A stretch of DNA of 64,000 nt from Deltaproteobacteria bacterium (GCA_016931625.1 JAFGEK010000079.1:258-64257); one strand, 5' to 3'. Shown: positions 4,827 to 43,590, counted from the first letter of the stretch. Program-made: numbers and translations. The notes: generated by a model not told the origin, from the sequence alone.

Positions 4827-4883
4827 CTAAAACAACAAACTACTACTGAAAAATTATTTATGCTGTGCTGGAGTATCAAGTGA
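4644..4883 (+). pseudogene. truncated N-terminal fragment (roughly 60 aa) of the nucleotidyltransferase gene duplicated at 6305-7552
   Basis: MAKAMSKTSPIILDTAKLELLKP...LFGSYARGDFVIDEK matches the N-terminus of the 415 aa protein. It then diverges into a short nonsense tail that overlaps the Fic start codon at 4865. Confidence 0.75.
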
Positions 4884-6254: not shown

Positions 6255-6488
6255 CATTAGTTTAGTAATAATCGTCTTGCAAACCCTAAATTATTAGGCC
6301 AATAGTGGCAAAAGCAATGAGCAAAAAAGCACCTATAATATTAGATACGGCTAGGTTAGAGTTGCTAAAGCCCACTGCGCAGCAAAAACTGGCCGCCATT
6401 ATTGAGTTATATGCTGCCTACCCATTGGTTGAATATCTGATGTTGTTTGGCAGTTATGCGCGTGGTGACTTTGTTATTGATGAAAAAA
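6255..6488. repeat. roughly 233 bp direct repeat, copy 2 of 2 (promoter plus 5' end of the intact nucleotidyltransferase gene)
   Basis: See the 4595-4826 entry. Confidence 0.85.
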
Positions 6489-9240: not shown

Positions 9241-9332
9241 AAATTAGCTATCAAAGTAGACAATTAGGGATAAACTTCCCAAGCCGTAGCATTACCAAGT
9301 TGACCTTGGTAATTATCGCCGAAGCAGTAGGC
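9241..9332. repeat. 92 bp direct repeat, copy 2 of 2 (native 3' end of the RCC1 lipoprotein gene)
   Basis: See the 4497-4588 entry. Confidence 0.85.
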
Positions 9333-13085: not shown

Positions 13086-13230
13086 TGCTCCCTCACAGCT
13101 AGTAACAATAAGGTATAACGGCTCTATTTTGAAAAACATGTAGTGCGATTTTAAAAAGGTTAATTCGAGGTAGTAAAAAATAGTAATAATGTAGTATAAA
13201 CGCAGATACTTATATTAGTTAGGCATAAGC

Positions 13231-14755: not shown

Positions 14756-15001
14756 ATGCAATGGATAAATGCGTCTGAATTTAAAGCAAAGTGTTTAGCA
14801 ATGCTCGATGAAGTGGCAAAGAGTACTGATGGTATAACTATTCTTAAAAGAGGACGTCCTATTGCTAAGTTAATACCTTATGTTTCGAGCGATGAAAAAT
14901 ATCCACAGAATTCATTAAAAGGCAGTGTTGTGATTAAAGATGATGTTATAAAGCCAGTATTGTCTGATTCAGTTTGGGAGGTAGATAAGCATAATTTATG
15001 A
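14756..15001 (+). CDS. type II antitoxin, Phd/YefM-like
   Basis: Small acidic protein ...KAKCLAMLDEVAKSTDGITILKRGRPIAKLIP... Its stop overlaps the start of the downstream PIN toxin gene by 4 bp (ATGA). Confidence 0.75.
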   Translation: MQWINASEFKAKCLAMLDEVAKSTDGITILKRGRPIAKLIPYVSSDEKYPQNSLKGSVVIKDDVIKPVLSDSVWEVDKHNL

Positions 15002-15393
15002 AGATTATTTTAGACACACATATTATTTTATGGTGGTTTGAAGATACTAATAGACTATCAAAAAAGCAGAAAAAAACCATTGAAAATGCTGATCAACAAA
15101 ATCCACTGTTGATTTCAGATATATCGTTATGGGAAATAGCCACTTTATATGAATTAGGCAGAATAAAACTTAAACTGCCATTACGAGATTGGCTTATGCA
15201 AGCTTTTGCGCCACCACTAGTCAGGTTATGTGGTATTACTGCCGCAATTGCTGCAACGGTTGCTTCACTACCAGAGAGTTTTAATCGAGATCCTGCCGAT
15301 AGAATTATAACAGCTACCGCGCTGGTTCATGGTGCAACATTAGTTACTAATGACGAAAGAATAATAAGATCAAAAATTGTATCAATACTTTAA
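14998..15393 (+). CDS. vapC: PIN-domain ribonuclease toxin VapC
   Basis: MKIILDTHIILWW..., SLWEI, DPADRII and TNDERI supply the four acidic PIN residues. Translationally coupled to the antitoxin gene. Confidence 0.85.
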   Translation: MKIILDTHIILWWFEDTNRLSKKQKKTIENADQQNPLLISDISLWEIATLYELGRIKLKLPLRDWLMQAFAPPLVRLCGITAAIAATVASLPESFNRDPADRIITATALVHGATLVTNDERIIRSKIVSIL

Positions 15394-15466: not shown

Positions 15467-15509
15467 AGTACAATTTTGTTAAAAGTCATATAACAGTAAA
15501 AAACTTTGA

Positions 15510-16043
15510 GTGTCAGATAATATGGCAGAAATAAAAAGCGATAGCCAAGTTATCGGTAAACCCCTTATCAGCGACTTGGTGGCAAACGATATTGATAATA
15601 GTCTGCAAAGTTCACTAACAGTCTCAGCGTTTATTAATAATAGTCAAATAATTGAAACAAACAAATTAGTATATAGTGATGCAGACTTATTTTGCGATGG
15701 CGATGAACAATTATATTCACAGTATATTACAGGTAATCCAGCAAGTGGGCAGAATTTTAGCGCCAATAGCAATTATTTAAGTTTAAATACTGATTTTGCC
15801 TGCCACAACAACGCTGGGGTTAATTTATCGGTTTCTTCAAGTAAAATTAAAGCAGCAGAAGATGTAGAGATAGAAGAGGCCTTTAAGTTTTTAAAGCACA
15901 TCGGTTTTTCAGATGAGCAAGCGCTTGATACGATTACGGTAGGAATAACTAGTACAGTTAGCCAAATTGCCATCGCAAACAGTTGCGATGCTGCAAGACT
16001 TACCAGAAGAAATCGTTGCATTTATACCAATAGAGAAACTTAA
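15510..16043 (+). CDS. hypothetical protein (Ser/Asn-rich). It may continue by a +1 frameshift into ORF 15967-16335.
   Basis: ORF only; no recognisable motif. It overlaps the next ORF by roughly 75 nt in a different frame. Confidence 0.4.
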   Translation: MSDNMAEIKSDSQVIGKPLISDLVANDIDNSLQSSLTVSAFINNSQIIETNKLVYSDADLFCDGDEQLYSQYITGNPASGQNFSANSNYLSLNTDFACHNNAGVNLSVSSSKIKAAEDVEIEEAFKFLKHIGFSDEQALDTITVGITSTVSQIAIANSCDAARLTRRNRCIYTNRET

Positions 16044-16335
16044 AGAACTATCGTCCGAGAAAGTATGGGCGATGTCGAAAGCAAAATTCAATGCAGTAGT
16101 TACAGGTTATATTCTTGAATACCTTTTAACTAAGACGCCCAGCGATGTAGCATTTGTAAAAACCTTACCAGAAATAACTGAAGAATTTGTAAATCTAAGC
16201 CATAAAATTAAGATGCTAAGAATAAAAATGAAAAATGAAAAACCGGATAGCTTTTTTTATCGAATATATCAAAAGTTATTAATTAAGTATAAAACAAGAC
16301 ATAAGAAGATACATGATCTGCTGAGTAAAAAGTGA
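15967..16335 (+). CDS. hypothetical protein (possibly the C-terminal part of a frameshifted gene)
   Basis: ORF with a TTG start; lysine-rich tail. Confidence 0.35.
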   Translation: MPSQTVAMLQDLPEEIVAFIPIEKLKELSSEKVWAMSKAKFNAVVTGYILEYLLTKTPSDVAFVKTLPEITEEFVNLSHKIKMLRIKMKNEKPDSFFYRIYQKLLIKYKTRHKKIHDLLSKK

Positions 16336-16385
16336 ATTATAAAATGTATAATCAAAATAATAAATATATATTCATATTGAGGTAA

Positions 16386-17690
16386 TTACTGCCATCTTAG
16401 CGGTTTATTTAGTAGCATCTCACTAAAAGCATCTATGCGTGTACGGACTTGTGAAGGATTAAAACTATGAGAGTCAATGCAACAAGCGTCAAGAGTTAAT
16501 ACTGGTATTTGTTCGCGTAAGAATAATTGCTGTAAAAGCGGATATTGCATAGCATAAACTCCACAATGAGGCATAGCTAGCATTACCACGCCATCAATAC
16601 GATGCTCTTCGGCTTGCTCTAATAAAAGTTTAAAGCGTTGTTGGGGTAAAATCGATTCACGGGAATTAAGTAGGTGTTTGGCTAAATCATCATAGGGGTC
16701 ATATAAATCACAACCTTTAAAGTTAAGTTCTGATATATCTTCCCATACAAAACGAATCAGGCCATCACGCTCGATATATTCAACTATATCATTGGGATAG
16801 TATGGCATTAAAAACATCCACATAAGCCGCCGCTGTGGTTGTTGTTTAACTTGATCATCATTTTGTAAACGTTCTTGGTAACTTTGCAGCATATGTTGGG
16901 CAAAGGCAGTAAATTCCGGCTTACCATAGTAGGGTGAAACTCCAATGGTAAGTGATTGAAAGACACTTGGCGGATCAAGCAATGGGTAGCGACTGCGCAA
17001 ATGCAGTGCAGCTTTAAATGCGGTATAGGCATTATGGGCGTATGCTAAACTATTGTGTAAGTTTGCAGAACTAAGGGTTTCACCAGTTTGCTTTTCAATT
17101 AGGTGAGTCAACTCATATAGTTGTGATGCCACATATTTAATGGCATTAATATTATCACCGGCATTATAGGGCACGTTAATTAAATAATGTGGCGCTTGAT
17201 AATGATGAGCTGCAAAACTATATACATTGGATATACCTTCACAACCTTTAGCCGTGTTAATAATAAAATCTGGCGAAGCACAAATATTTAAGTATTGACT
17301 GGCAGGTATCGTGCGGACAAAATTGCATACTGATCGTGGTATGCCGATTTTGTCAGCAGCAATAAGCAGACATTGCTCGGCGCCCTGAGCTGCAAATAAT
17401 GAACCGATAGCTTCAACCGGAAAAAAGACAAGGCTGCTAAAGGCATTAAGTAATTCAGGGGGGACGGTAATATTGCGCCAGACTACAAAAGCATCTGGGG
17501 TATAAGCGCGACGCAATTCAGAGGCAATTAATGATAAAGGTGATGAAGTAGCTGCGGTCGGGTTAAGCGAGAGATCAGCGGCAATTTTGTTGGCCAAAGT
17601 TTTTTTAGGTATTTTATGTCGACGTAATTCGGTAAATAGCCTCGCTATTTGTTGACTACGTTCATGATGTTGTAGCTTAATTAAACTCAT
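16386..17690 (-). CDS. 2-hydroxyacyl-CoA dehydratase-family subunit (HgdB/BcrB/BadE-like)
   Basis: Size and Cys-containing blocks (e.g. MPHCGVYA, LDACCIDSH) are typical of the dehydratase family that depends on an ATPase activase (a CoA-substrate-specific enzyme activase). Confidence 0.6.
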   Translation of the reverse strand: MSLIKLQHHERSQQIARLFTELRRHKIPKKTLANKIAADLSLNPTAATSSPLSLIASELRRAYTPDAFVVWRNITVPPELLNAFSSLVFFPVEAIGSLFAAQGAEQCLLIAADKIGIPRSVCNFVRTIPASQYLNICASPDFIINTAKGCEGISNVYSFAAHHYQAPHYLINVPYNAGDNINAIKYVASQLYELTHLIEKQTGETLSSANLHNSLAYAHNAYTAFKAALHLRSRYPLLDPPSVFQSLTIGVSPYYGKPEFTAFAQHMLQSYQERLQNDDQVKQQPQRRLMWMFLMPYYPNDIVEYIERDGLIRFVWEDISELNFKGCDLYDPYDDLAKHLLNSRESILPQQRFKLLLEQAEEHRIDGVVMLAMPHCGVYAMQYPLLQQLFLREQIPVLTLDACCIDSHSFNPSQVRTRIDAFSEMLLNKPLRWQ

Positions 17691-17730
17691 TATATTATCA
17701 CAACCTTTAGATAATTTTTTAATAATAGAC

Positions 17731-19710
17731 CTAGCTATTTTTTATTGAATTCAAACGCTCAAGCCATGCATCACAGCGTGTTTGCAGTTGTCCGTCAATA
17801 GTTAAATTACCTGAGAGTTCAAGTTCTAGAGTCGGTAGCCCGAGTTTTTCAAATTCTTGCGAAATAAAATGCATATTTGTATAAGCCACCGTACAGAATT
17901 TTGCATTGACTACCACTATCCCATCTGCTTGAGCATGTAATACTTGACCTATAATATTGCGTAAAAATTTATGCTTGTCGATTAATCGCGGGCAGTTAAT
18001 ATGAGTTAGGGTATAGTCTGCTAAAGCAATAAAAGGGTCTTTACATTTAACATTAATATAACCTTGCCATGGTCGCATTGCCGAGCAATGATCAGTTACG
18101 ACAAATTCAGCGCTCGTAGCAAATGTTTGCTGCAGCGTTTCGTTATTAATACAACACCCTAAAATTGCGAGTCGCAATTTTGTTGAGACAATATTTTTAT
18201 TACTATGCTTAGCTTTTAGCTGTTGAAGATAACCTTGCAATTGTAAAGAGATCGATGAGGGTGGCATGGTTAATGCCATAGTATATAGTTCAGCCATAGC
18301 AGCTTCATTTATGGTTAAAGCGCCAGATGTACGAAATAACATAAGTTGTTGCCATAAGAGTCTAGTTTCATTGCTAGCATTAATAGCTTGCCATAATTTA
18401 TTAAGAGAAAACGATATATTAAAATATGCACAGAGTTGATCAACAATTGCACGATAGCTTTCAGCTAAATAGTGGCAGTCGTTAACCTGGTTTTTTAACG
18501 GCATTGCACTTAACACCGTGAAAATTTGGGGTTGTTGCAATGCAATAGCATCATAAACACGGCGTTTGGCATCACATGAGTCAACTGCGATAACACCGAG
18601 TAATTGGCGGTTAGCATGTAGATTTTCAATTTGACTTGCTTGTGCAGATGCAATTGAGCAAATTTGTGGATGTAGATTAAATAGTGAAAGTTGTTGGTGT
18701 TGTGTTTGAATAGCGATAATGCGATTTGGTAGGTTAAGAGCGTATAAAATTTCACGAGGAAAACAACTGCAAAGTACGGCAATAAAACTATCCTTAGCAA
18801 TAGCCTTATTAGTATTTGGAGAAGCAATAACTTGATTTGAACATGTTGGCTGAGACTTTATTTGATTATTACATTTAAGTGAATAGTTATTATTAAGTAA
18901 ATTATCACGTGCAATAAGTGCAGCACCAAGAGCCCCAACTATTTGGGGATTATCACATACATTTAGTGTATATCCTAACAAGTGTGTAAGTTGTTTTACT
19001 AGGGCCTGATTAAGTGCAACACCGCCACTCATAACATATAAAGGAGAATGATCCAGCCGTTGTATTAATGCTAAAGTACGATTAGCAATAGCATAAAATA
19101 CTGCCGCCATTATATCACCAGGGTTAATATTTTTTGCAATAAGACTTACAACTTCAGACTCGGCAAAAACCGCGCAGGTAGAATTTATATTTACTTTATT
19201 AATACTATTAGCTGCGGCGAAGTTTAATTGCGTGAGATCATCATTAAGCGTACGACAAATCGTTTCAATAAAGCGACCAGTACCAGCGGCACACCGATCA
19301 TTCATAACAAAATTTTGAACATTACCATTATTAGCAAGACAAATAACTTTGCTATCTTGTCCACCAATATCAATTACTGTTTTAGCTTCGGGAAAAAAAT
19401 GCAAGACCCCACGAGCATGACAAGAAATTTCAGAAATTGTATTTTTCACCCAACTAACACTATGACGTCCAAATCCAGTAGCTACGCTAGCAATAATTTG
19501 CTGAGGTTTAATATGAAATAACCCTAATATTGCTTGATAGGCCATATCAGCAGTATTTTCAGCACTAGGACTACTTGAAAAAATATGACTAAAGGAAATA
19601 TGACCAGTATCAGTATCAACAGCAACAATTTCTGTTGAGATCGATCCAATATCAATGCCCAAACAATAGGTTGCAGTAGGTTTTGGCAGCATTGTAAAAC
19701 TATTAATCAT
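17731..19710 (-). CDS. fusion of a BadF/BadG/BcrA/BcrD-type ATPase (dehydratase activase) with a second 2-hydroxyacyl-CoA dehydratase-like subunit
   Basis: The N-terminal roughly 270 aa have an ASKHA fold (CLGIDIGSISTEIVAV ... VMSGGVALNQ). The C-terminal roughly 390 aa form a Cys-rich dehydratase-like domain (AILGCCINNE, VTDHCSAMRP). Confidence 0.6.
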   Translation of the reverse strand: MINSFTMLPKPTATYCLGIDIGSISTEIVAVDTDTGHISFSHIFSSSPSAENTADMAYQAILGLFHIKPQQIIASVATGFGRHSVSWVKNTISEISCHARGVLHFFPEAKTVIDIGGQDSKVICLANNGNVQNFVMNDRCAAGTGRFIETICRTLNDDLTQLNFAAANSINKVNINSTCAVFAESEVVSLIAKNINPGDIMAAVFYAIANRTLALIQRLDHSPLYVMSGGVALNQALVKQLTHLLGYTLNVCDNPQIVGALGAALIARDNLLNNNYSLKCNNQIKSQPTCSNQVIASPNTNKAIAKDSFIAVLCSCFPREILYALNLPNRIIAIQTQHQQLSLFNLHPQICSIASAQASQIENLHANRQLLGVIAVDSCDAKRRVYDAIALQQPQIFTVLSAMPLKNQVNDCHYLAESYRAIVDQLCAYFNISFSLNKLWQAINASNETRLLWQQLMLFRTSGALTINEAAMAELYTMALTMPPSSISLQLQGYLQQLKAKHSNKNIVSTKLRLAILGCCINNETLQQTFATSAEFVVTDHCSAMRPWQGYINVKCKDPFIALADYTLTHINCPRLIDKHKFLRNIIGQVLHAQADGIVVVNAKFCTVAYTNMHFISQEFEKLGLPTLELELSGNLTIDGQLQTRCDAWLERLNSIKNS

Positions 19711-19756
19711 TTAAAGGCTCACCCATATATACATTTTTTTAAAAAATAGTTTAAAT

Positions 19757-21028
19757 TTAAAAATTTGAAATAACAAGAGCTGCCGCGTTACCTGCATGTG
19801 AAGTAGAGGTAATAAGTGCATGCTTAGTATTTACTGACACCTTCTTAGTTTGCGCGTAATTTAAAGGAGTTTCTGGATTAACCAGGTTGGCAATTGCTGG
19901 TACCGAACTATTTCGTATTGACCAAGCAGCTACTAATGTTTGCAGTAAACCACCAGTTTCTAAGGTTTCACCTATACTACCCTTAATCGCAGTAATTATC
20001 GGACATATATTATCATTATTAGTATATAAACATGATATTACATCAGCTTCACGACGGTCAATTTCGATATCTCCAGATGCAGATGCAGAAATGACACCGA
20101 TATCATTAACATCAATACCAGCCTGCTTAATTGCATGTGTGCATGAATTAAGTAAGGTTTCGGTTGCTTCATCATTATCAGCCGCCATTGCTGATGATAA
20201 TCCGCTTAAATTTGTGAGAGGAGTGATATCACGTTGTTGAGCATATGATAATGGTTCAAGTACTACAGCAGCGGCAGCTTCTCCTAAAGCAATATTTTTG
20301 CGATTAGTATCAAATGGTCTAGGTAAATAATTAGTATCAAATTTGCTGGCTCTTGACATGCTAAATAGTAACTCATCACAAAAAGAAAAACTTGTAACAA
20401 CTACCAAGGCACGTGCGCGTTTTTGTTGTAATAATAGTGTCGCAAGATTAAGTGCCTCAAGTGATGAAGTGTTTCCGCTTGATATAGTGAAACATAAGGC
20501 CTTGAGACCAAGAGATAAAGCGATTTGACTACTGGCAGCGCTTGGAATGCTAAATGGAACCAGGGCAGGATTAGATTTATGCAATCCTTCAACTACCACA
20601 CTGCGGTCATATTTTATTAAAGTTGGAAGATGAGCAAAACTAAACGCTCCTATTAACCCAATTTGATTACAATCAAAGTAAGTATCTGAAACGTCATCGA
20701 AGGTTTGATGATTTTCGTTATTTTGCTTATTGATATCGCAATATATTTTAGCATCATCAAGAGCAAGTTTTGCGGCGCAAAGCCCTAATTGAGTAGTGCG
20801 GTTAAGTAATCTCAATCCCTTTACAGGTGAATATTTTAAGGGGTCAAAATTTGGAATGCTAGCAATATTGATTTTAGGTATATCTTTAGCAGATTGCCAG
20901 GTTTGCAAAATGCCATTATATCCAGTGCATAATGAAGTAGCTAAAGTATCTAACGAATCACCAAGAGGCGTGATTACCCCAACCCCGGATATGGCGATAG
21001 GATTGCCAATTTCACCAAGTTGATTCAT
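19757..21028 (-). CDS. ketosynthase-like protein lacking the Cys-His-His triad (KS-beta / chain-length-factor-like partner)
   Basis: Thiolase/KS fold. The active-site position reads ALCFTISSGNTSS with Asn in place of Cys. The two His positions read ISASASG and IKGSIGE. The start of the upstream KS gene overlaps its end by 4 bp. Confidence 0.7.
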   Translation of the reverse strand: MNQLGEIGNPIAISGVGVITPLGDSLDTLATSLCTGYNGILQTWQSAKDIPKINIASIPNFDPLKYSPVKGLRLLNRTTQLGLCAAKLALDDAKIYCDINKQNNENHQTFDDVSDTYFDCNQIGLIGAFSFAHLPTLIKYDRSVVVEGLHKSNPALVPFSIPSAASSQIALSLGLKALCFTISSGNTSSLEALNLATLLLQQKRARALVVVTSFSFCDELLFSMSRASKFDTNYLPRPFDTNRKNIALGEAAAAVVLEPLSYAQQRDITPLTNLSGLSSAMAADNDEATETLLNSCTHAIKQAGIDVNDIGVISASASGDIEIDRREADVISCLYTNNDNICPIITAIKGSIGETLETGGLLQTLVAAWSIRNSSVPAIANLVNPETPLNYAQTKKVSVNTKHALITSTSHAGNAAALVISNF

Positions 21029-22260
21029 GTTTCACAACGCTTTATGATCAGGCAAACATTAAAGCCGCCAAAGCCAGCAGATAGATTTAAACAGTTATTT
21101 AATGGCAAATTGCGACCATGAATAGGCACGTAATCAAGGTCACACTTAGGATCATGTGTCGTAAGATTTGCCGTAGGTGGTACGGCTTGGTGTTGCAGCG
21201 CTAAAGTGCAAATAATAGCGGCGATAGCGCTGGCGGCGCCATTGCAATGCCCAAGCATAGATTTCAAAGAACTAATGCTTAGCTTATAGGCATGTTCACC
21301 AAATATATTCTTTATAGCTGAGGTTTCCGCATTATCATTATGAATAGTACCGGTACCATGAGCGCTTATATATTCAATTGCAGAAAAAGATGTATTACTT
21401 TGTTGTAATGCTTTACGCATAGCTCTTGTAAAACCATCACCTTGTGGTTCTGGGGCAGTAACATGGTAGGCGTCATTACTCATGCCATATCCTGCGATTT
21501 CAGCAATTATATTAGCGCCGCGTGTTCGCGCATGTTCATAATCTTCAAGAACTAAAATACCTGCCCCTTCACCAAAACATACACCATCACGATTTAGATC
21601 AAAGGGTCGACAAACAGATTTGGCTAAAATTCCCAGACGCGAGAAACCGCTATAAACTGTGCGGGTAAGTGTATCAGCGCCGCCAGCCACCATAAGTTCT
21701 GCTCTGCCGCTAGCAATCATATCGTAGGCAAGAGCAATTGCGGCATTACCCGAACTGCATGCAGCTGTGCATAATATTGATGGACCGGTGAGGGAAAAAT
21801 AACGAGAAATATTCGTTGTTATATGATGGTTATCAGCACGTTGATAAAACGTTGCATCAACTGCGTCATAGCCAATTTGAGTAAAATGATCATTAAGCTC
21901 ACCAACTGATTCTTCTTCGCCCATGGTAGTACCGATAATTACTCCAATAGGTGCGCGTCTTTTGGTGTCATTAATTAGTTGGGCTTCAGTAAGTGCAAGT
22001 TTTGTCGCTATTAAGGCTAGTTTAGTGCAGCGACCATAGGCAGCAATATGATCGATTACTTGTTTATCGTTATCAGTTGATAAATCGCATAGTGGTGTGG
22101 ATACTTCACCGCCCCAAAGATCAGCCATATTTGTACAAGAAAAACGCTGCAATGGAGCGATAAAGCAAGTACCGTCGAATAGTGATTGCCATACACTGTA
22201 TAGCTCACTTCCTGCAGCAGTTAATAAACCTCTGCCGGTTATTGCGACTTTACGTAACAT
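21025..22260 (-). CDS. beta-ketoacyl-ACP synthase (FabF/KS-alpha-type, catalytically intact)
   Basis: Cys motif ILCTAACSSG; His motifs ISAHGTGT and MLGHCNGAASA. Confidence 0.85.
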   Translation of the reverse strand: MLRKVAITGRGLLTAAGSELYSVWQSLFDGTCFIAPLQRFSCTNMADLWGGEVSTPLCDLSTDNDKQVIDHIAAYGRCTKLALIATKLALTEAQLINDTKRRAPIGVIIGTTMGEEESVGELNDHFTQIGYDAVDATFYQRADNHHITTNISRYFSLTGPSILCTAACSSGNAAIALAYDMIASGRAELMVAGGADTLTRTVYSGFSRLGILAKSVCRPFDLNRDGVCFGEGAGILVLEDYEHARTRGANIIAEIAGYGMSNDAYHVTAPEPQGDGFTRAMRKALQQSNTSFSAIEYISAHGTGTIHNDNAETSAIKNIFGEHAYKLSISSLKSMLGHCNGAASAIAAIICTLALQHQAVPPTANLTTHDPKCDLDYVPIHGRNLPLNNCLNLSAGFGGFNVCLIIKRCET

Positions 22261-22281
22261 AAAAGGACTCCCAAACTAGTG

Positions 22282-23559
22282 CTAGCTTTTTATGTAGCGC
22301 TTGCGCATGGCTTCACCATGATTTGTTAAAAACCAATTCCAGCAATCAAGCCACCCTTGACGTAATTGTTCAACTGAAAAATGCTTTGGTCGAAAAACAA
22401 TATTAGCACCGTTATATTTTTGCCATTGGTGATGCAAAAGACGCCCTGATTTTGTAAAACGAGCAAACAAGCGACTGCCCGGAAAAGGTGTTGCAATAAA
22501 AAATACCGCGTCATTAATAGATAATCTTGTTAGATAGGCAAGAACTGTATCAAAGATCGATGGTTGATCGTAATCAAAACCTAACATTGTCGAAGCGCAA
22601 ATATGAAAACCTAAATCTTGAATATATTTAATCAAATCATGATTATTCCAATATTTTTGAGCTAATTCACTTGGTATGTTAGTAGCAAAACTATTGAGGG
22701 TTAAATATAGACTATCAACATTACATGAATGTAGATGCTTTAAAAATGAAGGGTCGACTTGTTTGATCGAGCTTAACTCATCAGGAGCTAAAGCTAGCAT
22801 AAAACGTTTTTGTGTAGTGCTCAGTGCCGCGAATAATTCGCGTAACATAGGCAAAGCGTTGTCACCAGTGGCGCCTTGAGTCAAATTATCTGGAATATAT
22901 AAAGTGTTACTGGCCACGTTAGTAAGGTCTTGTAGTATTTTATCTGCTGTCAGCTGACGAATTTTACCATCAACCAAGGGTTCAACATGGGCAATGGGAC
23001 ACCATTGACATTGCAGGCGACAAGAGCGCGGTGTCAACATAATTTCCATGTCATGCGGGTAGGTCTGTCGATTCACTAACGAACGTTGGGGTAGGGGAAT
23101 TTCATTTATTGTTGGCGGACGCTCGCTAATATAAAATTGCTTGGTGGTGCCATGTAGCAAATCATTTATAAAAAGTGGCCAGGTAAGCTCAGCCTCACCA
23201 ATAAAAAGTATATCCGCATGCGCTCGTGCTTCTTGAGGCATTATAGTTACATGTTTGCCTCCCAGAATCACGAGTTTGTTTCTTTGGCGAAAATTATCAG
23301 CAATGTCATATGCTCGTGAAGCTTGTGGAGTAAAAAGGCTTATTGCCACAAGATTTGCATTAGTTTCATATGGAATGCTCATAAATTGGTCATCGATAAA
23401 TTCTAGTTCTATTTCTTTGGGTGTCAATGCTGCTAAAGTTGGTAAAGCTAACCCAGGCCCAACAGGATCAAGCCACGGGTAACCATCAGTGAGATGGCTA
23501 AGTTCAGAATGACCTTCTATGAGTTTTGCATAGCTTGGATATATTAATAATATTTTCAT
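22282..23559 (-). CDS. B12-binding-domain radical SAM enzyme
   Basis: N-terminal MKILLIYPSY... Rossmann-like B12 domain. The radical SAM cluster motif is CRLQCQWC (CxxxCxxC). Confidence 0.7.
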   Translation of the reverse strand: MKILLIYPSYAKLIEGHSELSHLTDGYPWLDPVGPGLALPTLAALTPKEIELEFIDDQFMSIPYETNANLVAISLFTPQASRAYDIADNFRQRNKLVILGGKHVTIMPQEARAHADILFIGEAELTWPLFINDLLHGTTKQFYISERPPTINEIPLPQRSLVNRQTYPHDMEIMLTPRSCRLQCQWCPIAHVEPLVDGKIRQLTADKILQDLTNVASNTLYIPDNLTQGATGDNALPMLRELFAALSTTQKRFMLALAPDELSSIKQVDPSFLKHLHSCNVDSLYLTLNSFATNIPSELAQKYWNNHDLIKYIQDLGFHICASTMLGFDYDQPSIFDTVLAYLTRLSINDAVFFIATPFPGSRLFARFTKSGRLLHHQWQKYNGANIVFRPKHFSVEQLRQGWLDCWNWFLTNHGEAMRKRYIKS

Positions 23560-23579
23560 GCTAACAGGGTGTTGGTCGA

Positions 23580-23804
23580 TTAGGCGTTGGCATTTTTGGC
23601 AACTCGCAATAGGTCATTAAAGTTATGCACTTCGGCGTATTGTTTTTCAGGAATGGTTATTCCTAAAGCTTGTTCAATTTCAAAAATTAATTCAAGCGCC
23701 CCTAGAGAATCGATACCTAAGACCTCGCGAAAATCTGCATCATTAGCGAAATCCTCATTAGTTTCAGCTATCTGTGCAACTATCTGTCTTAGTTGTTGTT
23801 CCAA
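23580..23804 (-). CDS. acyl carrier protein
   Basis: 74 aa, acidic. Phosphopantetheine-attachment motif LGIDSLGALEL. Confidence 0.8.
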   Translation of the reverse strand: MEQQLRQIVAQIAETNEDFANDADFREVLGIDSLGALELIFEIEQALGITIPEKQYAEVHNFNDLLRVAKNANA

Positions 23805-23858
23805 AATACTCTCCTGAAAATGTATAGTGTAATGAAGTAAAAAATTGTTAGCTTGCCG

Positions 23859-24137
23859 TTATGCTATAGAGATGAATTTATTTTGTTGTTTTTGCATTTG
23901 TTGTACTAATGCGGTGATAGTATTAACGGTACGAAAATTATCAGTATTTATATCCACAATATTGACATTGACTGCGAATCTCTCATCAATAAAAGCAATT
24001 AGAGCAAATGTTGAAAACGAATCAAGGATACCGTTTTGTTGAAGATCAGTATCAATATCGAAGCCGCGTTCGTCATTGTTAAGAAAATTATAAATAATAT
24101 ACTGGCTAATCTCTTTGGCAATTAATGAAGCACTCAT
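23859..24137 (-). CDS. second acyl carrier protein-like protein
   Basis: 92 aa with GILDSFSTFALIAFIDE (DSx attachment-site context). Its start overlaps the stop of the upstream ligase gene. Confidence 0.6.
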   Translation of the reverse strand: MSASLIAKEISQYIIYNFLNNDERGFDIDTDLQQNGILDSFSTFALIAFIDERFAVNVNIVDINTDNFRTVNTITALVQQMQKQQNKFISIA

Positions 24138-25702
24138 GAAGATCGTCCCAAGCGATTTTTATCGCGAGCAGGAATTAGTAAATCAGGATTCATCCCGGCA
24201 ACTGCTGATCCAATACTAAGGCGATCAGCTTTGCCATTATCGGTACGTGGTAATTTTCTAACTAATCTAACATCAGATGGGATCATATAGCGAGGTAGTA
24301 AACCAGCACAATGCCGTTTAAGATCTAAAACCGATAGTGTTTGTTCATTTGGTACCGCAACCGCAATTAATTTATTATGTGCAACTAAAGCTACAGCTTC
24401 ATGGACTTTGGGATGTTGATTTAACACAGCTTCGACTTCACCAAGCTCAATGCGATTACCGCGAATTTTAACCATATGATCAAGTCGACCATGATACCAT
24501 AACTCACCATTAGCGCCACGTGATACTAAATCACCAGTTGGGTAAGGACGTTGAGGTTTTATGGTGTTACCGCCATTAAAATAACCAAGCATTACCGTCG
24601 GTCCATCAACTAATAATTCACCGATTTCTCCATCAGCAACAGGATGCCCACTCGTAGAAACTATACTAATTGTGTTGCTACAACTCGGCCAACCAATAGG
24701 TATTGCTGCGGAGTTTTCTGAAGGAGGTTTTTTTATTTCATAGTATAAACACACATTAGTTTCAGTAGGACCAAAGAAATTAAAAAAGCGAGCTTGGCGA
24801 ACTGCGGTCATAAGCCGACGTAAGTGTTTTAGGGGAAACACTTCACCAGCGAAACAAATAACTCGTAATGAAGCAGCACCATTGCGCGTTAATTCACCTG
24901 AATCTAACATAAGCATAAGCGCTGAAGGCACTGAATACCAGATGGTAATATTATAGTGTCGAATAAATTCTGACATGTGATGGCCAGAGTTGCTAATAGC
25001 CTCATCAACAATAAATATCGTAGCACCGCGACTAAATGATGCCCAAATATCAAAAACAGATAAATCAAAATGAAATGGCGCATGATTAGCTACATGATCA
25101 TGATTATTAAGGTCTACTAACGTAGCAGCCCACTCAGTAAATGCTAAGACATTTCTGTGTGATATCATTACTCCCTTAGGAGTGCCAGTTGAGCCAGAAG
25201 TATAAAGAATAAAAGCTAAATCATCAGAACAATTTGTTGATACAGAGGGAATATTATTGCTATGTTGTTTAATTTGGTTAAGGTTTGTTACTTTGCTAGT
25301 TGAATGATCGTGATTATCGATAAGTAAAAAACGATTTATTTTGTTTTCTTGTTTAGCTTCTTGCCATACTTTTAGCAGAGATGAAGTTGTGATTAAGTGA
25401 TGCAAATTACAGTCATTAGCGATAAGAATAGCGCGAGATATTGGTGAGGCAGGATCAATAGGTACAAAAGCTGCACCTGCACGCAATACTCCTAACATTG
25501 CTGCCACAACTATTGGTGAGCGAGGTGAATGAATTCCTACGCGATCACCAATACCAACTCCTTGGTTAATTAGACTGTGGGCAAACTGATTTGCCAGTGT
25601 ATCTAAGTCACCATAGGTAAGTTTTGATTTCTGACCGACAAGCGCTAAGTGCTGACTTTCGTGCTCGGCCCATATAGTTACAAGCTGATCTATGCGCATC
25701 AT
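24134..25702 (-). CDS. AMP-dependent synthetase/ligase (fatty-acyl-AMP / acyl-ACP ligase-type adenylating enzyme)
   Basis: Adenylation core motif ILYTSGSTGTPKGV and GEL..GP..M.GY block. Position next to the ACP genes suggests it loads an ACP. Confidence 0.8.
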   Translation of the reverse strand: MMRIDQLVTIWAEHESQHLALVGQKSKLTYGDLDTLANQFAHSLINQGVGIGDRVGIHSPRSPIVVAAMLGVLRAGAAFVPIDPASPISRAILIANDCNLHHLITTSSLLKVWQEAKQENKINRFLLIDNHDHSTSKVTNLNQIKQHSNNIPSVSTNCSDDLAFILYTSGSTGTPKGVMISHRNVLAFTEWAATLVDLNNHDHVANHAPFHFDLSVFDIWASFSRGATIFIVDEAISNSGHHMSEFIRHYNITIWYSVPSALMLMLDSGELTRNGAASLRVICFAGEVFPLKHLRRLMTAVRQARFFNFFGPTETNVCLYYEIKKPPSENSAAIPIGWPSCSNTISIVSTSGHPVADGEIGELLVDGPTVMLGYFNGGNTIKPQRPYPTGDLVSRGANGELWYHGRLDHMVKIRGNRIELGEVEAVLNQHPKVHEAVALVAHNKLIAVAVPNEQTLSVLDLKRHCAGLLPRYMIPSDVRLVRKLPRTDNGKADRLSIGSAVAGMNPDLLIPARDKNRLGRSS

Positions 25703-26847
25703 TAAAGTCCTAATGATTTAGCGATGAGTATGCGCTGCATTTCAGAGCTACCGGAAAATACTCGCGCAGGAAGGGCATCGCGTAAGAGAGAATCGACACC
25801 AGTAGCAGTAATCATGGCAAAGCCACCAAAAATTTGTACCGCATCGCTGCCACTTTGTACTGCGGCTTCAGAAATCCAAAGTTTTGCTAAAGAAATAGCT
25901 TCTTCACAATGTTTGCCATCACGATGCAACTCGCCAGCGCGATAAAGCAGCGCACGACTAGTTTCAAGACGAAGTTTCATATCAACAATACGATTTTGTA
26001 TCGACTGATTTTCACCTATAACACGACCAAATTGTTTGCGCGTACGTGCATAGTCAATACATTGTTCAAGCGTACGTTCCATATAACCTACGTAGAAGGC
26101 GAATAGGCAACCACGTTCCCAAATCATTGACTCATGAAACAGAGCAGCGCCACAACCTTCAGCACCCAAACGGGTTTTGGCGCTTACACGACAATCGTTT
26201 AAATATACTGTACCCCATGGTGAAGTACGTAAGCCTGTTTTATTGAGCTCAGCTTGCACCTGCAAGCCTGCTGTTTCACGTGGCAATAAAAAGGCGCTAA
26301 TGCCCAGAAAACCACGAGCAGGATCGGTAGTAGCATAGATTAAAAAATAGTCAGCTATAGGTGCATTGGTGACAAAACACTTGCTACCATTGATAATATA
26401 TTGGTCACCATCGCGTACCGCGAGAGTTTTCAAGGCGAATACGTCAGAACCAGCTTCTGGTTCAGTAATAGCGTTAGCGCAAATATGGGTACCGTTAATG
26501 AACGATGGCAAATAGCGAGAAGTCATTTCATTTTGGGCACGCCAAATGGGTACTGACGCTGCAAACATATGTGCACACAGAGAAAAAATTAAGCCACTAT
26601 CTTCGCAGTGTTTGCCTAACGCCTCAATGATTACCATGGTATCTAGGGCATTAAGATTGCTGCCCCCAAATTGCTCAGGAAACGGTAGACCTGTAAGTCC
26701 AAAGCTAGAGGCTTGCGTCCAAAGCTCTCTATTAAAAGCGGCAGCAGCTTCACGTTCACGAGCACCTGGTGACAAACGTGTTTGTGCAAACTGGCTGACC
26801 ATTTGGACCCGCTCTTGTTGAGCTTGGTCCAAGTTGTAATAAGGCAT
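25702..26847 (-). CDS. acyl-CoA dehydrogenase-family flavoprotein
   Basis: ACAD N-, middle- and C-domain arrangement. Sequence ...QIFGGFAMITATGVDSLLRDA... Its start abuts the ligase gene. Confidence 0.8.
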   Translation of the reverse strand: MPYYNLDQAQQERVQMVSQFAQTRLSPGAREREAAAAFNRELWTQASSFGLTGLPFPEQFGGSNLNALDTMVIIEALGKHCEDSGLIFSLCAHMFAASVPIWRAQNEMTSRYLPSFINGTHICANAITEPEAGSDVFALKTLAVRDGDQYIINGSKCFVTNAPIADYFLIYATTDPARGFLGISAFLLPRETAGLQVQAELNKTGLRTSPWGTVYLNDCRVSAKTRLGAEGCGAALFHESMIWERGCLFAFYVGYMERTLEQCIDYARTRKQFGRVIGENQSIQNRIVDMKLRLETSRALLYRAGELHRDGKHCEEAISLAKLWISEAAVQSGSDAVQIFGGFAMITATGVDSLLRDALPARVFSGSSEMQRILIAKSLGL

Positions 26848-27012
26848 AGTTTATAATTTCAAAGCACTATGTCGTTTTTGTCAAGAAATGCAAGAGATAA
26901 TTAATACATATTAATTGATATACTATCTAAAACGTAAATAGTATAAATATAGTGATTTTTCTTCGTCATTACATTAAAACGAAGTAGTCACTTGTATGTG
27001 CAGGGAGTTATT

Positions 27013-28281
27013 TTATCGACATAAAGCGCGATCAAGCTCAGTAATCAGATCATTTACGTTTTCTAAGCCTACTGACATACGGATAAAATCATCACCAATA
27101 CCAGCATTTTCTCTTTCATTAATATTTAAGTTGCGATGAGTTGTGCTTGCTGGATGAATAACTAGTGTTTTGGTGTCACCGATGTTGGTGCTATGACAAA
27201 GTAACTCTATTTGATCAATAAAGTGACGGCCAGCTTCATATCCACCAGCTACACCAAAACCTATCATAGCACCAAAGTATTGACGTAAATACTTTTTAGC
27301 TTGAGTGTGTGATGGATGGTCTTCCAATTCTGGATAACAAACCCATTTTACCTGCGCATGTGATTTTAAAAATTTTGCAAGTTGCGAAGCGTTTTCACAA
27401 TGGCGTTGCATACGAATATGCAATGTTTCCATGCCGCGCAGCATGAGCCAAGCAGTATGTGGTGACATGCAAGCACCCATGTTCATCAGCACTTTGCCTC
27501 GTAAACGAGTAGTGAATGCTAAAGGACCAAACTGTTCGGCATAAGCACGACCAGTTGGGGTAGATTCAAACATCAAGGGATAGCGTTCAGGTTGCCAAAT
27601 AAAGCGGCCGGCATCGACTAAGATGCCACCAATAATCATACCATGACCATCAAGATATTTAGTGCATGAATGAATTACAAAGTCGGCACCATAATTAATA
27701 GGATTAGTAAGATATGGTGTCGCAATGGTATTATCAACGACATAGGGGACATTTATTTCATGAGCAATTGCACTTAAAGTTTCGTGGATGGGGACTAACA
27801 AACTAGGATTGGCTAAATTTTCAACAAAAATAAGCCGAGTTTTCTCAGTGATTTGAGTACGTAGCGAATTTTCATCAAGCGGATTAAAAAAGCGTGTTTT
27901 TATGCCAAGAGTGCTTAAGGTATCACGTAGTAGCCCAATACTACCACCATATAAGCAGGAGGCCGCGACGATCTCATCGTTAGGTCGCAACATATTAAGA
28001 ATTAGACCTGTTACTGCCGCCATGCCTGAAGCAAAGGCAACCCCAGCAACGCCGCCTTCTAACATTGCTACACGTATTTCAGCTTCGGCAACGGTTGGAT
28101 TACCTAAACGGCTATAGATGAAACCCGACTCTTTAAAATTAAAAAGTTCTGCAGCATGATCACTACTATCGTAAGTAAAAGCCGCAGTTTGATATAAAGG
28201 AATTGCACGAGCATGTTGATGGGCTTGCGGTTCATAGGTGCCATGCACCAACTCGGTCTCAGGAGCATATCGTTTTGACAT
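27013..28281 (-). CDS. metY: PLP-dependent O-acetylhomoserine aminocarboxypropyltransferase / sulfhydrylase (Cys/Met-metabolism family)
   Basis: Trans-sulfuration-family layout with the Lys-bearing motif region ...VIHSCTKYLDGHG... Confidence 0.75.
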   Translation of the reverse strand: MSKRYAPETELVHGTYEPQAHQHARAIPLYQTAAFTYDSSDHAAELFNFKESGFIYSRLGNPTVAEAEIRVAMLEGGVAGVAFASGMAAVTGLILNMLRPNDEIVAASCLYGGSIGLLRDTLSTLGIKTRFFNPLDENSLRTQITEKTRLIFVENLANPSLLVPIHETLSAIAHEINVPYVVDNTIATPYLTNPINYGADFVIHSCTKYLDGHGMIIGGILVDAGRFIWQPERYPLMFESTPTGRAYAEQFGPLAFTTRLRGKVLMNMGACMSPHTAWLMLRGMETLHIRMQRHCENASQLAKFLKSHAQVKWVCYPELEDHPSHTQAKKYLRQYFGAMIGFGVAGGYEAGRHFIDQIELLCHSTNIGDTKTLVIHPASTTHRNLNINERENAGIGDDFIRMSVGLENVNDLITELDRALCR

Positions 28282-28410
28282 ATGGCATTGATTACTTAAG
28301 TTTAGCAGAAAACCAAGAGAAAAATTACTTGCGAGTCACAGTTTCATATGTAATGGCATACTACATCAGCTTGCTAACGCTTACGGTACGGTTAAATTCA
28401 TCATAAAAGC

Positions 28411-29250
28411 ATGACAACACGTATTGGATTATTTGATTCTGGTGTAGGCGGTCTTGGTGTTTGGCGCGCTATAAATGCTGCTATTCCTGAAGCGACAACA
28501 ATATATGTCGCTGATCAGGTGCATTTTCCTTATGGTGCTTGTAAAAATACCCAAGTACAAAGCTATGCCTCTGCGATTTCCCGCTTTTTATTGGCAAAAG
28601 GTGCAGAAATTATTGTTGTTGCATGTAACTCAGCCTCGACTGCAGCCCTGCAATATCTGCGCGATAATTTTAAAAATGTTCCTTTTGTAGGTATGGAACC
28701 TGCAGTGAAACCAGCGATCGAACAAACACGCAGTAAAGCTGTTGCGGTATTAGCTACAGAGTTAACCGCCCAAGGCGAAGCTTTGGCGAAGCTTTGTCAG
28801 CGCTTTGAGCATAGCGCGCGGATTATTGCACAACCATGTCCGGGGCTGGCTGAAATTGTCGAAGCTGGTGCAGTTGATATAGCTTCAACTGATGGGCATC
28901 TCCGTGAACTACTAAAGCCGCTAATTGCCGCCAAAGTTGATCAATTAGTCTTAGGATGTACTCATTATTCGTTTTTACGTACGGCAATTGCCAAAATTGT
29001 TGGTGATAAAGTTAATATAATTGACCCAGCAGAGGCCGTTGCACGTCAGGTGCAACGAGTATTGTTATCGCTAAATACTATTAATGATAAGTTAGGAATA
29101 TCGGTGCAGCATGAGTTTTATACTACTGCGGTACCAGAAAAATTTTCTAGCCTCGTAGATAGTTTACTACCATCCTTACCGCATGAAACTAGTAGTATTA
29201 AAGGTCTTATATGGCGGGATGAAAGCTTAAGTTTGGTAGAATCTTTGTGA
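28411..29250 (+). CDS. murI: glutamate racemase
   Basis: MTTRIGLFDSGVGGLGV start; the two catalytic Cys blocks ACNSAS and GCTHYSF. Confidence 0.85.
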   Translation: MTTRIGLFDSGVGGLGVWRAINAAIPEATTIYVADQVHFPYGACKNTQVQSYASAISRFLLAKGAEIIVVACNSASTAALQYLRDNFKNVPFVGMEPAVKPAIEQTRSKAVAVLATELTAQGEALAKLCQRFEHSARIIAQPCPGLAEIVEAGAVDIASTDGHLRELLKPLIAAKVDQLVLGCTHYSFLRTAIAKIVGDKVNIIDPAEAVARQVQRVLLSLNTINDKLGISVQHEFYTTAVPEKFSSLVDSLLPSLPHETSSIKGLIWRDESLSLVESL

Positions 29251-29633: not shown

Positions 29634-29740
29634 GGAGATAATTCCAATAATTCTTGATTTAAAAAATTAGCAACTAACAGGTGACAGGATAAGTCTTTCA
29701 TGTTTTGATAAAGCTTAAATAGCAGAATGTGAGGGTAGTT

Positions 29741-43380: not shown

Positions 43381-43590
43381 ATGAAAACCATTCGCCTTAT
43401 AACAGATATAGCCTGCGAAATGGACGAAGACGTTTTTGCCTTACTTGGTCGCATAGATTTTCATGTTTGTGACAACCATTATCTTGATGACCACGAACGT
43501 TTAGCAGCAATCGCTGTGCTACTGCGAGAATTTTTTGCTAAACGTGAGCGTTTACGTTGGGAGTTAATTAATCATTTTATCATCAAATAA
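43381..43590 (+). CDS. hypothetical protein
   Basis: ORF only. Confidence 0.3.
   Translation: MKTIRLITDIACEMDEDVFALLGRIDFHVCDNHYLDDHERLAAIAVLLREFFAKRERLRWELINHFIIK

Follow-up and report, generated by a model that had tools for sequence, protein, structure and literature searches.

What would a bacterium make with a ketosynthase (KS), two carrier proteins and two different radical or low-potential enzyme systems encoded side by side? The question is raised by nine genes on the minus strand, positions 16,386 to 26,847, of a 64,000-nucleotide stretch of the genome of an uncultured Deltaproteobacteria bacterium (GCA_016931625.1, JAFGEK010000079.1:258-64257), which is hereafter called the window. 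A preliminary description of this locus had named an acyl-CoA dehydrogenase (ACAD), an AMP-dependent acyl ligase, two discrete acyl carrier proteins (ACPs), a B12-binding radical S-adenosylmethionine (SAM) enzyme, an active KS with a triad-less partner, and two proteins resembling 2-hydroxyacyl-CoA dehydratases, one of them fused to its activase. All nine co-directional open reading frames are present, and profile searches against Pfam and NCBIfam bear out the domain calls, that of the 92-aa carrier through weak hits together with solved structures, although several of the functional names have to be changed. Our analyses tip modestly in favour of the whole locus being a single operon for a thiotemplated, proline-primed small metabolite of polyketide type.

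Genes 1 to 3 read, by homology, as the textbook module that converts proline to pyrrole-2-carboxyl bound to a peptidyl carrier protein (PCP), and not as fatty-acyl enzymes. Gene 1 (25702..26847, 381 aa) contains the N, M and C domains of the ACAD fold (Pfam Acyl-CoA_dh) and is 64-68% identical to the first gene of syntenic loci in Myxococcota. It scores 559.8 bits against the PigA equivalog model, above the cut-off of 500, without reaching that of the RedW equivalog (414 bits, cut-off 650); the PigA model describes the L-prolyl-PCP dehydrogenase of prodigiosin biosynthesis (NCBIfam NF053553). The label acyl-CoA dehydrogenase is therefore right for the fold, while the protein itself is best described as a PigA-type L-prolyl-[peptidyl carrier protein] dehydrogenase rather than a fatty-acyl enzyme. 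Gene 2 (24134..25702, 522 aa) has AMP-binding and AMP-binding_C domains, as an acyl ligase would, but passes the amino-acid adenylation model TIGR01733 (356.4 bits, cut-off 317.4), and its best solved relative is PltF, an L-proline--[prolyl-carrier-protein] ligase (6o6e, E 3e-112). It is accordingly renamed a stand-alone adenylation enzyme of the nonribosomal peptide synthetase (NRPS) type, probably specific for L-proline; its 10-residue specificity code, DLFSCAFVCK, compares with DLFSFALVCK in the syntenic relatives.

Both proteins first listed as ACPs are carriers, one of them being a prolyl carrier. The 92-aa product of gene 3 (23859..24137) stays below the cut-offs of Pfam PP-binding_2 (16.8 bits against 32) and NCBIfam DltC (43.4 bits against 68), and its identity is taken from its matches to solved structures and from the DSF serine motif, the phosphopantetheine serine lying in GILDSFS. 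Its best solved relatives are prolyl carriers of pyrrole pathways, namely 2my5/2my6, PigG (5jdx, 7thn_E) and PltL (2n5h), with the carrier domain of Bmp1 (6cxt) also among them, and it shares 45-59% identity with the PCPs of the syntenic loci. The 74-aa product of gene 4 (23580..23804), with a GIDSLG motif, is the sole protein of the locus to pass Pfam PP-binding (2.3e-13); its best solved relatives are ACPs of the fatty acid synthase type, 9s5i_E being a further match, and it is presumed to carry malonyl or extension units. The chain starter would thus be an amino acid and one of the two carriers a PCP, and gene 1 is predicted to carry out the four-electron oxidation to pyrrole-2-carboxyl-S-PCP, a pyrroline being less likely. 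With genes 1 to 3 identified in this way, genes 1 to 4, together with the KS and its Cys-less partner, form a pyrrole-starter/ketosynthase cassette.

The two KS genes, gene 6 (21025..22260, 411 aa) and gene 7 (19757..21028, 423 aa), each encode the N and C domains of ketoacyl-synt (Pfam). Gene 6, a FabF-type enzyme at 368.8 bits against the NCBIfam FabF-like model (cut-off 493.75), keeps the catalytic triad Cys168-His-His, and gene 7 has Asn, Ser and Glu at these positions (alignment A1), so that an active KS with a partner in which Cys is replaced by Asn had been correctly recognised. Gene 7 would be a catalytically dead partner resembling a chain-length factor. The best solved relatives of the two proteins are two chains of one structure, 9s5h_B for gene 6 (2e-99) and 9s5h_C for gene 7 (2e-33). 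In chain C of 9s5h the triad residues are replaced by Val, Asn and Glu, and the related entry 9s5i includes an ACP chain. A heterodimer of amxFabF2 and amxFabFmut from anammox bacteria, and its complex with ACP, have been described as working in the manner of a KS/chain-length-factor heterodimer, with Val/Asn/Glu substitutions of the triad in amxFabFmut (2026 preprint). The identifiers 9s5h and 9s5i are absent from the text of that preprint, and we infer from the matching substitutions and the ACP chain of 9s5i that these entries are the anammox heterodimer, which is very probably, then, the best solved relative of the KS pair.

With its counterparts in the syntenic loci gene 6 shares 50-56% identity and gene 7 32-42%; the nearest relative of gene 7 in a database of 5.8 billion proteins, which was used likewise for genes 5 and 8, is 39% identical. 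The actinorhodin chain-length factor 1tqy_B matched gene 7 with an E-value of only 2e-8. An aromatic type II polyketide synthase (PKS) was considered and rejected, the partner having Asn, and not the Gln of chain-length factors, at the KS Cys position, and no cyclase, aromatase or ketoreductase (KR) being found. The preliminary description had likewise set the locus apart from classical aromatic type II PKS and aryl-polyene sets, for want of a cyclase, KR or thioesterase, and from type II fatty acid synthesis, and both exclusions hold: no KR, dehydratase (DH), enoyl reductase (ER), FabD, thioesterase or phosphopantetheinyl transferase (PPTase) was found across the 64-kb window. The prodiginine pathway reportedly has pyrrolyl-S-PCP extended with malonyl-ACP by PigJ/RedX, a KS of two domains of which one lacks the Cys. 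By analogy with PigJ and RedX, the present pair would receive the PCP-bound pyrrolyl group and use it in a condensation with malonyl-ACP.

Genes 1 to 7 thus follow a logic already described for the pyrrole units of prodiginine and clorobiocin. The cassettes PigI/PigG/PigA, PltF/PltL/PltE and CloN4/CloN5/CloN3 likewise consist of a stand-alone adenylation enzyme, a PCP of ~90 aa and an ACAD-fold dehydrogenase. Here too the starter module is followed by an ACP, a KS and a partner devoid of the Cys, as it reportedly is by PigJ and PigH in prodiginine biosynthesis, and a cobalamin-type radical SAM enzyme is present, as CloN6 reportedly is in that of clorobiocin. Unlike in prodiginine biosynthesis, KS and partner are separate FabF-like proteins and are not joined in a PigJ fusion; genes for a PigH-type aminotransferase, a halogenase, a type I PKS or aminocoumarin formation are absent, and two extra iron-sulfur proteins are encoded. 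Membership of the prodiginine 4-methoxy-2,2'-bipyrrole-5-carbaldehyde (MBC) pathway was rejected: the PigJ model, whose cut-off is 900 bits, gave scores of 107 and 15.7, and the window holds no gene like PigH (ACP-ACP-aminotransferase) and none of the other MBC genes, such as PigM, PigF and PigN.

The distribution of this cassette emerges from a scan in which each GTDB species was represented by a single genome and alignment A2, of the dead KS partner, served as query. The six core genes, in the order ACAD, adenylation enzyme, PCP, ACP, KS and partner, recur in at least 10 Myxococcota species represented by metagenome-assembled genomes (MAGs; loci L011-L020), with a near-identical adenylation-domain code, and parts of the same arrangement are carried by two short metagenome contigs (L008, L172). 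Identity between the core of the window and these relatives is mostly 50-68%, with the partner at 32-42% and the small carriers at ~40-59%; GC content is 39% in the window genome as against 64-73% in the relatives. Conservation of gene order across 10 GTDB species of Myxococcota argues that the six core genes work together. No publication describing the six-gene cassette was found in the literature, and it appears as a previously undescribed but recurrent member of the pyrrole-starter-plus-KS type. The word 'cryptic', which had been applied to the entire locus, does not fit its core. The starter module is known; the nine-gene version is so far unique, with one genomic instance.

It is outside the six core genes that the window departs from its relatives. 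All ten of the full-length relatives that extend past the partner have a KR of the short-chain dehydrogenase/reductase (SDR) family directly 3' of it, L172 preserves the N-terminus of an SDR at the same position, and an oxidoreductase of the medium-chain dehydrogenase/reductase (MDR) type is present in eight of the ten GTDB loci. A hexapeptide transferase or a PPTase is encoded as well in some relatives, and an NRPS module in one. The window lacks any KR or MDR reductase throughout its 64 kb, and genes 8 and 9 occupy exactly the slot that the KR takes in the relatives; conversely, no radical SAM or HGD-type protein was found within 10 kb of the relatives' cassettes. The window is the sole instance found with an inserted radical SAM gene and with the KR slot filled by genes 8 and 9. 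One of the relatives, a Myxococcales species (L017, 11216-15649), encodes one NRPS module, with condensation, adenylation, thiolation and thioesterase domains (C-A-T-TE), 3' of the cassette and its KR, and there the pyrrolyl-acyl chain is probably transferred to an amino acid before release.

Gene 5 (22282..23559, 425 aa), the first of these departures, sits between the ACP and the KS as an insertion particular to this locus, and is absent from all 12 syntenic relatives, two of which are the short contigs L008 and L172. It has the layout of a class B radical SAM enzyme, with an N-terminal B12-binding domain (PF02310, 37.7 bits, above the cut-off of 32.1) and a CxxxCxxC motif at C180/C184/C187. 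In its AlphaFold model (pLDDT 90.2) the best fold in the PDB is the radical SAM diol-dehydratase AprD4 (TM score 0.76), followed at ~0.62 by the cobalamin methylases MgmA, CysS, TsrM and TokK and the methylthiotransferase MiaB. CysS and TokK have been crystallised with pantetheine-linked substrates, and the cobalamin-dependent CloN6 of clorobiocin biosynthesis reportedly methylates a carrier-bound pyrrole-2-carboxyl unit. Gene 5 itself groups with an uncharacterised clade of radical SAM enzymes, and methylation of a carrier-bound intermediate is a reasonable guess, and no more than that, from these analogies and from the model. Its closest homologue (P0122, 43% identity) directly follows a KS at a contig end (L005). 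A further relative lies in a locus of a MAG (L007, 1-14400; GCA_049472335.1) that encodes a KS, an ACP, a FabZ-like protein, a second KS, three B12-domain radical SAM enzymes, a methyltransferase and CrtI/phytoene-desaturase-like proteins. A HisKA_7TM kinase gene lies 3' of that locus, as it does after the KS-radical SAM pair in L005.

The second departure, genes 8 and 9, had been described as 2-hydroxyacyl-CoA-dehydratase-like, and here the cysteine architecture alters the interpretation. Gene 8 (17731..19710) encodes BcrAD_BadFG and HGD-D domains (Pfam) fused in one protein. The former, at residues ~15-270, corresponds to an ATP-dependent electron-activating ATPase, scoring 233.6 bits against TIGR00241 (above the cut-off of 125.4); HadI (4eht), MbdQ and HgdC are its solved relatives, and the cysteines of its cluster, Cys140 and Cys179, are invariant in the family alignment. 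The C-terminal part, with MbdN, BzdN and a double-cubane cluster protein (DCCP) as solved relatives, contains six cysteines (314/351/379/542/573/606) at spacings of 37/28/163/31/33. In BzdN the ligands of the double-cubane [8Fe-9S] cluster are Cys36/73/100/263/293/327, at spacings of 37/27/163/30/34 (PMC11971306). Of the six cysteines in gene 8, the first three are invariant in alignment A3, and the C-terminal three, when the alignment blocks are inspected, line up in every full-length member. The fused domain is predicted to bind a double-cubane [8Fe-9S] cluster.

Gene 9 (16386..17690, 434 aa) consists of HGD-D alone (Pfam, 2.7e-47), a BzdO/HadB-type partner, and keeps three ligand cysteines, 122/150/376. 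Those of BzdO, Cys95/128/380, bind the catalytic aqua-[4Fe-4S] cluster (PMC11971306); in the HMMER alignment Cys122 and Cys376 coincide exactly with Cys95 and Cys380, and Cys150 falls one column off Cys128. Gene 9 is therefore the predicted catalytic [4Fe-4S] subunit. In the dehydratases the double cubane has been lost from both subunits, whereas the DCCPs have kept it in both (PMC11971306); a six-Cys double-cubane subunit with a three-Cys partner is accordingly the layout of a benzoyl-CoA reductase (BCR) and not that of a dehydratase. The fused ATPase, being stoichiometric, would also suit a reductase that spends ATP on each electron better than a dehydratase that is activated once. The HGD-D domains and the fused activase of the earlier account stand, the cysteine pattern is that of BzdN and BzdO, and the radical dehydration that it proposed becomes less likely than an ATP-driven reduction.

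The resemblance to the Bzd class I BCR (BzdNOPQ; PDB 8s02, PMC11971306) extends to its kinds of part: a BcrAD/BadFG ATPase, an N-type subunit with six cysteines and an O-type subunit with three. The differences are that one ATPase domain is fused to the N-type domain here, as against two separate ATPase subunits (P/Q or A/D), that similarity is very low (E ~1e-6, with the BzdN and BzdO models at 29-38 bits against ~450), and that the setting is biosynthetic, with carrier proteins, rather than aromatic degradation. Assignment to a described family was rejected in each case tried: to the Bzd/Bcr subunit equivalogs, whose models are not reached and which do not have a single fused ATPase domain; to the Had/Hgd/Fld/Lcd dehydratases, given the six cysteines, the fused activator and the low scores against HadB and HadC; and to the DCCP/YjiM family, homodimers with a six- or seven-Cys motif in each subunit, gene 9 having only three ligand cysteines and NF040772 falling short of its cut-off.

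The closest full-length homologues of gene 8 (30-33% identity) come almost all from anammox bacteria, where the same two-gene architecture is found. In these pairs (P0069 in Brocadia, for example) the fusion is 30-33% identical over 97% of its length and the partner 25%, with the ligands of ATPase, double-cubane and three-Cys sites all conserved; unlike in the window, no KS, carrier or proline genes lie nearby. Such a pair occurs at 10001-13265 of L002 (Brocadia MAG GCA_013112835.1) and also in L003, L004 and L091, the genera being Brocadia, Jettenia, Scalindua, Anammoxibacter and Loosdrechtia, with unrelated neighbours; the neighbourhoods in L002-L004 contain no KS or ACP and give no functional clue, and no mention of the pair was found in the ladderane literature examined. 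The nearest relative of all (P0002, 40%) is a shortened 545-aa version on a metagenome contig of 45% GC (L171, 2-1725; JGI 3300017613), in which the last three double-cubane cysteines are missing and which has no partner gene. P0002 begins 8 nt past the end of an SDR gene whose last 25 residues resemble the KRs of the Myxococcota cassettes (~60% identity to that of L011), a weak hint that its clade may be tied to pathways of the KS/KR type.

Genes 1 to 9 are one compact unit. Three junctions overlap (ACAD/adenylation enzyme by 1 nt, adenylation enzyme/PCP by 4 nt, KS/partner by 4 nt), and the remaining five are gaps of 20-54 nt; the phrase 'mostly translationally coupled' thus fits the three junctions that overlap, by 1-4 nt, and not the other five. 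The only long gap in the locus is the 165 nt of AT-rich intergenic DNA 5' of gene 1 (26848..27012, minus strand), the likely promoter region of the operon, and the open reading frames downstream of the operon are convergent to it. That upstream gap contains a single, weak sigma-70-like match (26969-26940), such matches occurring at chance level regionally; a promoter and terminator scan of 15800-28500 gave counts at shuffle level and was uninformative on the operon boundaries. No convincing internal terminator was found within the nine genes, and positions 15500-29000 gave no riboswitch or other RNA in a comparison with Rfam at E-values as high as 1. The GC content of the locus (0.36-0.41) is that of the remainder of the window, and the flanking genes are housekeeping genes (MetY and RsmB, with NusA and IF-2 farther out), which places the locus in the host chromosome. 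The profile E-values of the locus proteins, the 92-aa carrier excepted, range from 1e-13 to 1e-86, so that the gene set is far beyond chance.

From these parts a pathway can be proposed, the early steps of which are supported by homology. The adenylation enzyme would load L-proline onto the 92-aa PCP, and the PigA-type flavoenzyme would oxidise prolyl-S-PCP to pyrrole-2-carboxyl-S-PCP. The pyrrolyl group would then move to Cys168 of the KS, acting as a heterodimer with its dead partner, and condensation with malonyl on the 74-aa ACP would give 3-oxo-3-(pyrrol-2-yl)propanoyl-ACP, possibly extended further. In the relatives, the SDR ketoreductase and the MDR-type reductase presumably process this intermediate; here two oxygen-sensitive systems would act instead, and their position and architecture suggest that the radical SAM enzyme and the BCR-like complex replace tailoring by an NAD(P)H-dependent KR and ER. 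The B12-domain radical SAM enzyme may modify the carrier-bound intermediate, C-methylation of the pyrrole or of the chain being our leading guess and a radical dehydration or rearrangement the alternative. In the complex of genes 8 and 9, the fused ATPase would pump low-potential electrons into the double-cubane cluster, from which they would move on to the partner's [4Fe-4S] cluster, and the partner subunit would reduce a (hetero)aroyl- or enoyl-type thioester of the pathway by a ketyl-radical mechanism. By analogy with BCR the most economical substrate would be an aroyl thioester, and pyrrole-2-carbonyl-S-carrier is one; a conjugated pyrrolyl-enoyl or beta-keto thioester is conceivable as well. 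That a double-cubane enzyme of the BCR type has been recruited to biosynthesis in order to dearomatise a carrier-bound pyrrole-2-carbonyl or pyrrolyl-acyl thioester is, as a specific proposal, quite unlikely in our estimate. Of the 'modified lipid or polyketide-like product' foreseen by the preliminary description, the lipid becomes less likely and a small pyrrole-polyketide more so.

Several observations weigh against a single proline-primed pathway. The proline specificity of gene 2 is probable by sequence, and its match to PltF surpasses that to the valine-activating LgrA narrowly (379 against 356 bits), while ACAD homologues such as AnaB are said to stop at a two-electron oxidation. Gene 5 is below the Pfam Radical_SAM cut-off (24.5 bits against 29.5), and its best fold match, AprD4, although alike in domain layout, is a dehydratase that neither methylates nor depends on cobalamin. 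Every named-family model for genes 8 and 9 falls far below its cut-off: BzdQ 141.9 bits against 380, BzdN 28.7 against 453.8, BzdO 38.1 against 448.6, HadB 57.9 against 750, HadC 41.8 and 42.8 against 700, and the double-cubane equivalog NF040772 103 and 74.8 against 350; their matches to solved structures have E-values of 1e-6 to 1e-10. To oxidise proline to a pyrrole and then reduce the ring again would look wasteful, and we know of no enzyme of the BCR or HAD families that acts on a substrate bound to a carrier protein. The window is also without a PPTase, a malonyl transferase or a release enzyme. Finally, because the nine-gene combination was found once, that genes 5, 8 and 9 act together with the core is argued from their position only.

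This last point is the ground of the main rival, which we regard as fairly unlikely: that the locus comprises two units, genes 1 to 7 (with or without the radical SAM gene) being the pyrrole/KS cassette, and genes 8 and 9 an independent low-potential reductase of unrelated function, perhaps housekeeping or detoxifying. The homologous anammox pair stands free among unrelated genes, without KS or carriers, and can thus be self-contained, which counts against the single pathway, and the six-gene core manages without genes 8 and 9 in its ten or more other occurrences. A metagenome scan with the fusion-protein alignment (at least 80 loci) showed KS, carrier and proline genes in none among the matches listed, and hence no second co-occurrence with core genes there, which is a weak negative in a scan dominated by generic activases. 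The 46-nt gap that precedes gene 8, moreover, is AT-rich and includes a good ribosome-binding site. Yet this gap is all that parts gene 8 from gene 7 on the same strand, and no terminator lies between them; genes 8 and 9 fill the KR slot of every relative in a window that has no KR or ER of its own; and P0002, the closest homologue of gene 8, directly follows a KR-like SDR gene.

A single pathway of another kind, to which we give a slim chance, would lead to an unusual lipid of the ladderane type, an iterative KS chain undergoing radical C-C chemistry (cyclisation or methylation) by the radical SAM and BCR-like enzymes and the proline unit being no more than a head group or primer; this corresponds to the 'modified lipid' of the preliminary description. 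The putative ladderane Cluster I consists of amxACP, amxFabZ, amxFabF2/amxFabFmut, a phytoene-dehydrogenase homologue and a B12 radical SAM enzyme (2026 preprint). The window shares with it an active FabF and a triad-less FabF, predicted to form a heterodimer, a dedicated ACP and a B12-domain radical SAM enzyme in one cluster. The matches of KS and partner to the two chains of 9s5h, whose dead chain carries the Val/Asn/Glu of amxFabFmut, point the same way, as do the occurrence of gene 5 relatives in loci with KS, ACP, FabZ and CrtI-like genes such as L007 and the nearly exclusive anammox origin of the closest full-length homologues of gene 8. L007 is like ladderane Cluster I in composition only, none of its radical SAM enzymes reaching the cut-off of the ladderane radical SAM model TIGR04072. 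Gene 5 is no orthologue under that model either, at 31.3 bits against a cut-off of 360. Neither the locus nor the rest of the window encodes the FabZ, phytoene-desaturase homologue, KR or ER that assembly of a reduced chain would call for, whereas a proline/pyrrole module is present. The relatives of the core are soil Myxococcota with KR and ER, one with an NRPS module, and look like secondary metabolism; the anammox pair itself is outside the ladderane cluster region examined. Membership of the ladderane cluster, which the weak TIGR04072 hit and the 9s5h matches had led us to consider, was rejected on the low scores and the missing FabZ and desaturase homologue.

A slimmer chance still attaches to a variant of the proline-primed pathway in which the flavoenzyme stops after two electrons, as AnaB reportedly does, so that the starter is a dehydroprolyl (pyrroline) group and the ring presented to the radical enzymes is not aromatic. 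The ACAD fold and the logic of carrier-bound proline are reportedly shared with AnaB, AnaC and AnaD of the anatoxin pathway, and the RedW equivalog is missed, but the PigA equivalog is passed and the carrier's best relatives are all from pyrrole pathways. Least probable of all is the reading of genes 8 and 9 as a genuine dehydratase of 2-hydroxyacyl thioesters, its activator fused to it, that stands in for a DH. In its favour, Pfam places both proteins in the HGD-D family, and the solved structure closest to the gene 8 ATPase is the 2-hydroxyisocaproyl-CoA dehydratase activator. Against it, the six double-cubane cysteines that dehydratases have lost (PMC11971306) are all retained in the fused domain, the HadB and HadC scores (42-58 bits against cut-offs of 700-750) are lower than those of the double-cubane model, no enzyme of the locus would make a 2-hydroxy or any other hydroxyacyl intermediate, there being no KR, and the activators of dehydratases act catalytically and are normally separate proteins.

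Should the proline-primed pathway with a BCR-like tailoring step prove correct, its implications would reach beyond this genome. The family of BCRs, 2-hydroxyacyl-CoA dehydratases and double-cubane proteins is known from anaerobic degradation and fermentation, and many members (among them E. coli YjiM, the DCCPs and the anammox pair) are orphans with regard to substrate; a locus with such an enzyme in the KR slot offers a concrete substrate hypothesis for an orphan clade that includes the anammox pair. If true, it would be the first anabolic, heteroaromatic and carrier-tethered substrate for the BCR-type family, and thiotemplated natural-product chemistry would extend to ATP-driven reductions at very low potential under anoxic conditions. 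As the nearest full-length relatives are the anammox pair, the same ACP-bound chemistry could then be a missing step in anammox lipid (ladderane) formation. The preliminary description had failed to recognise the pairing of KS chemistry with two different radical enzyme systems from any described pathway, and in the literature searched no described pathway that joins KS chemistry to two radical or low-potential systems was found. The recurrent pyrrole-primed KS/partner cassette in Myxococcota can, besides, be mined for products.

The surroundings of the operon are of a more general character. The MetY gene (O-acetylhomoserine sulfhydrylase; 27013-28281, minus strand; TIGR01326, 517 bits, cut-off 495) is co-oriented with the operon, starts the sequence 165 nt 5' of it and adjoins a SAM-consuming pathway; it is probably a housekeeping gene. 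Past the convergent end of the operon, overlapping genes for a PhD/YefM-type antitoxin and a PIN-domain toxin (14756-15393, plus strand) are separated from it by two open reading frames without family hits (15510-16043 and 15967-16335). Farther out, a 1291-aa protein with many RCC1 repeats and Big_13 and Y_Y_Y domains is encoded at 9264-13139 (minus strand), and a 557-aa protein that contains several serine-protease-inhibitor domains of the Kazal type, better known from animals, at 29729-31402 (plus strand). Two Fic/DOC-domain proteins and a nucleotidyltransferase/HEPN fusion, at 4865-6004 (plus strand), 43572-44567 (minus strand) and 6305-7552 (plus strand), suggest that several toxin or defence-type modules are present in this stretch of the chromosome.

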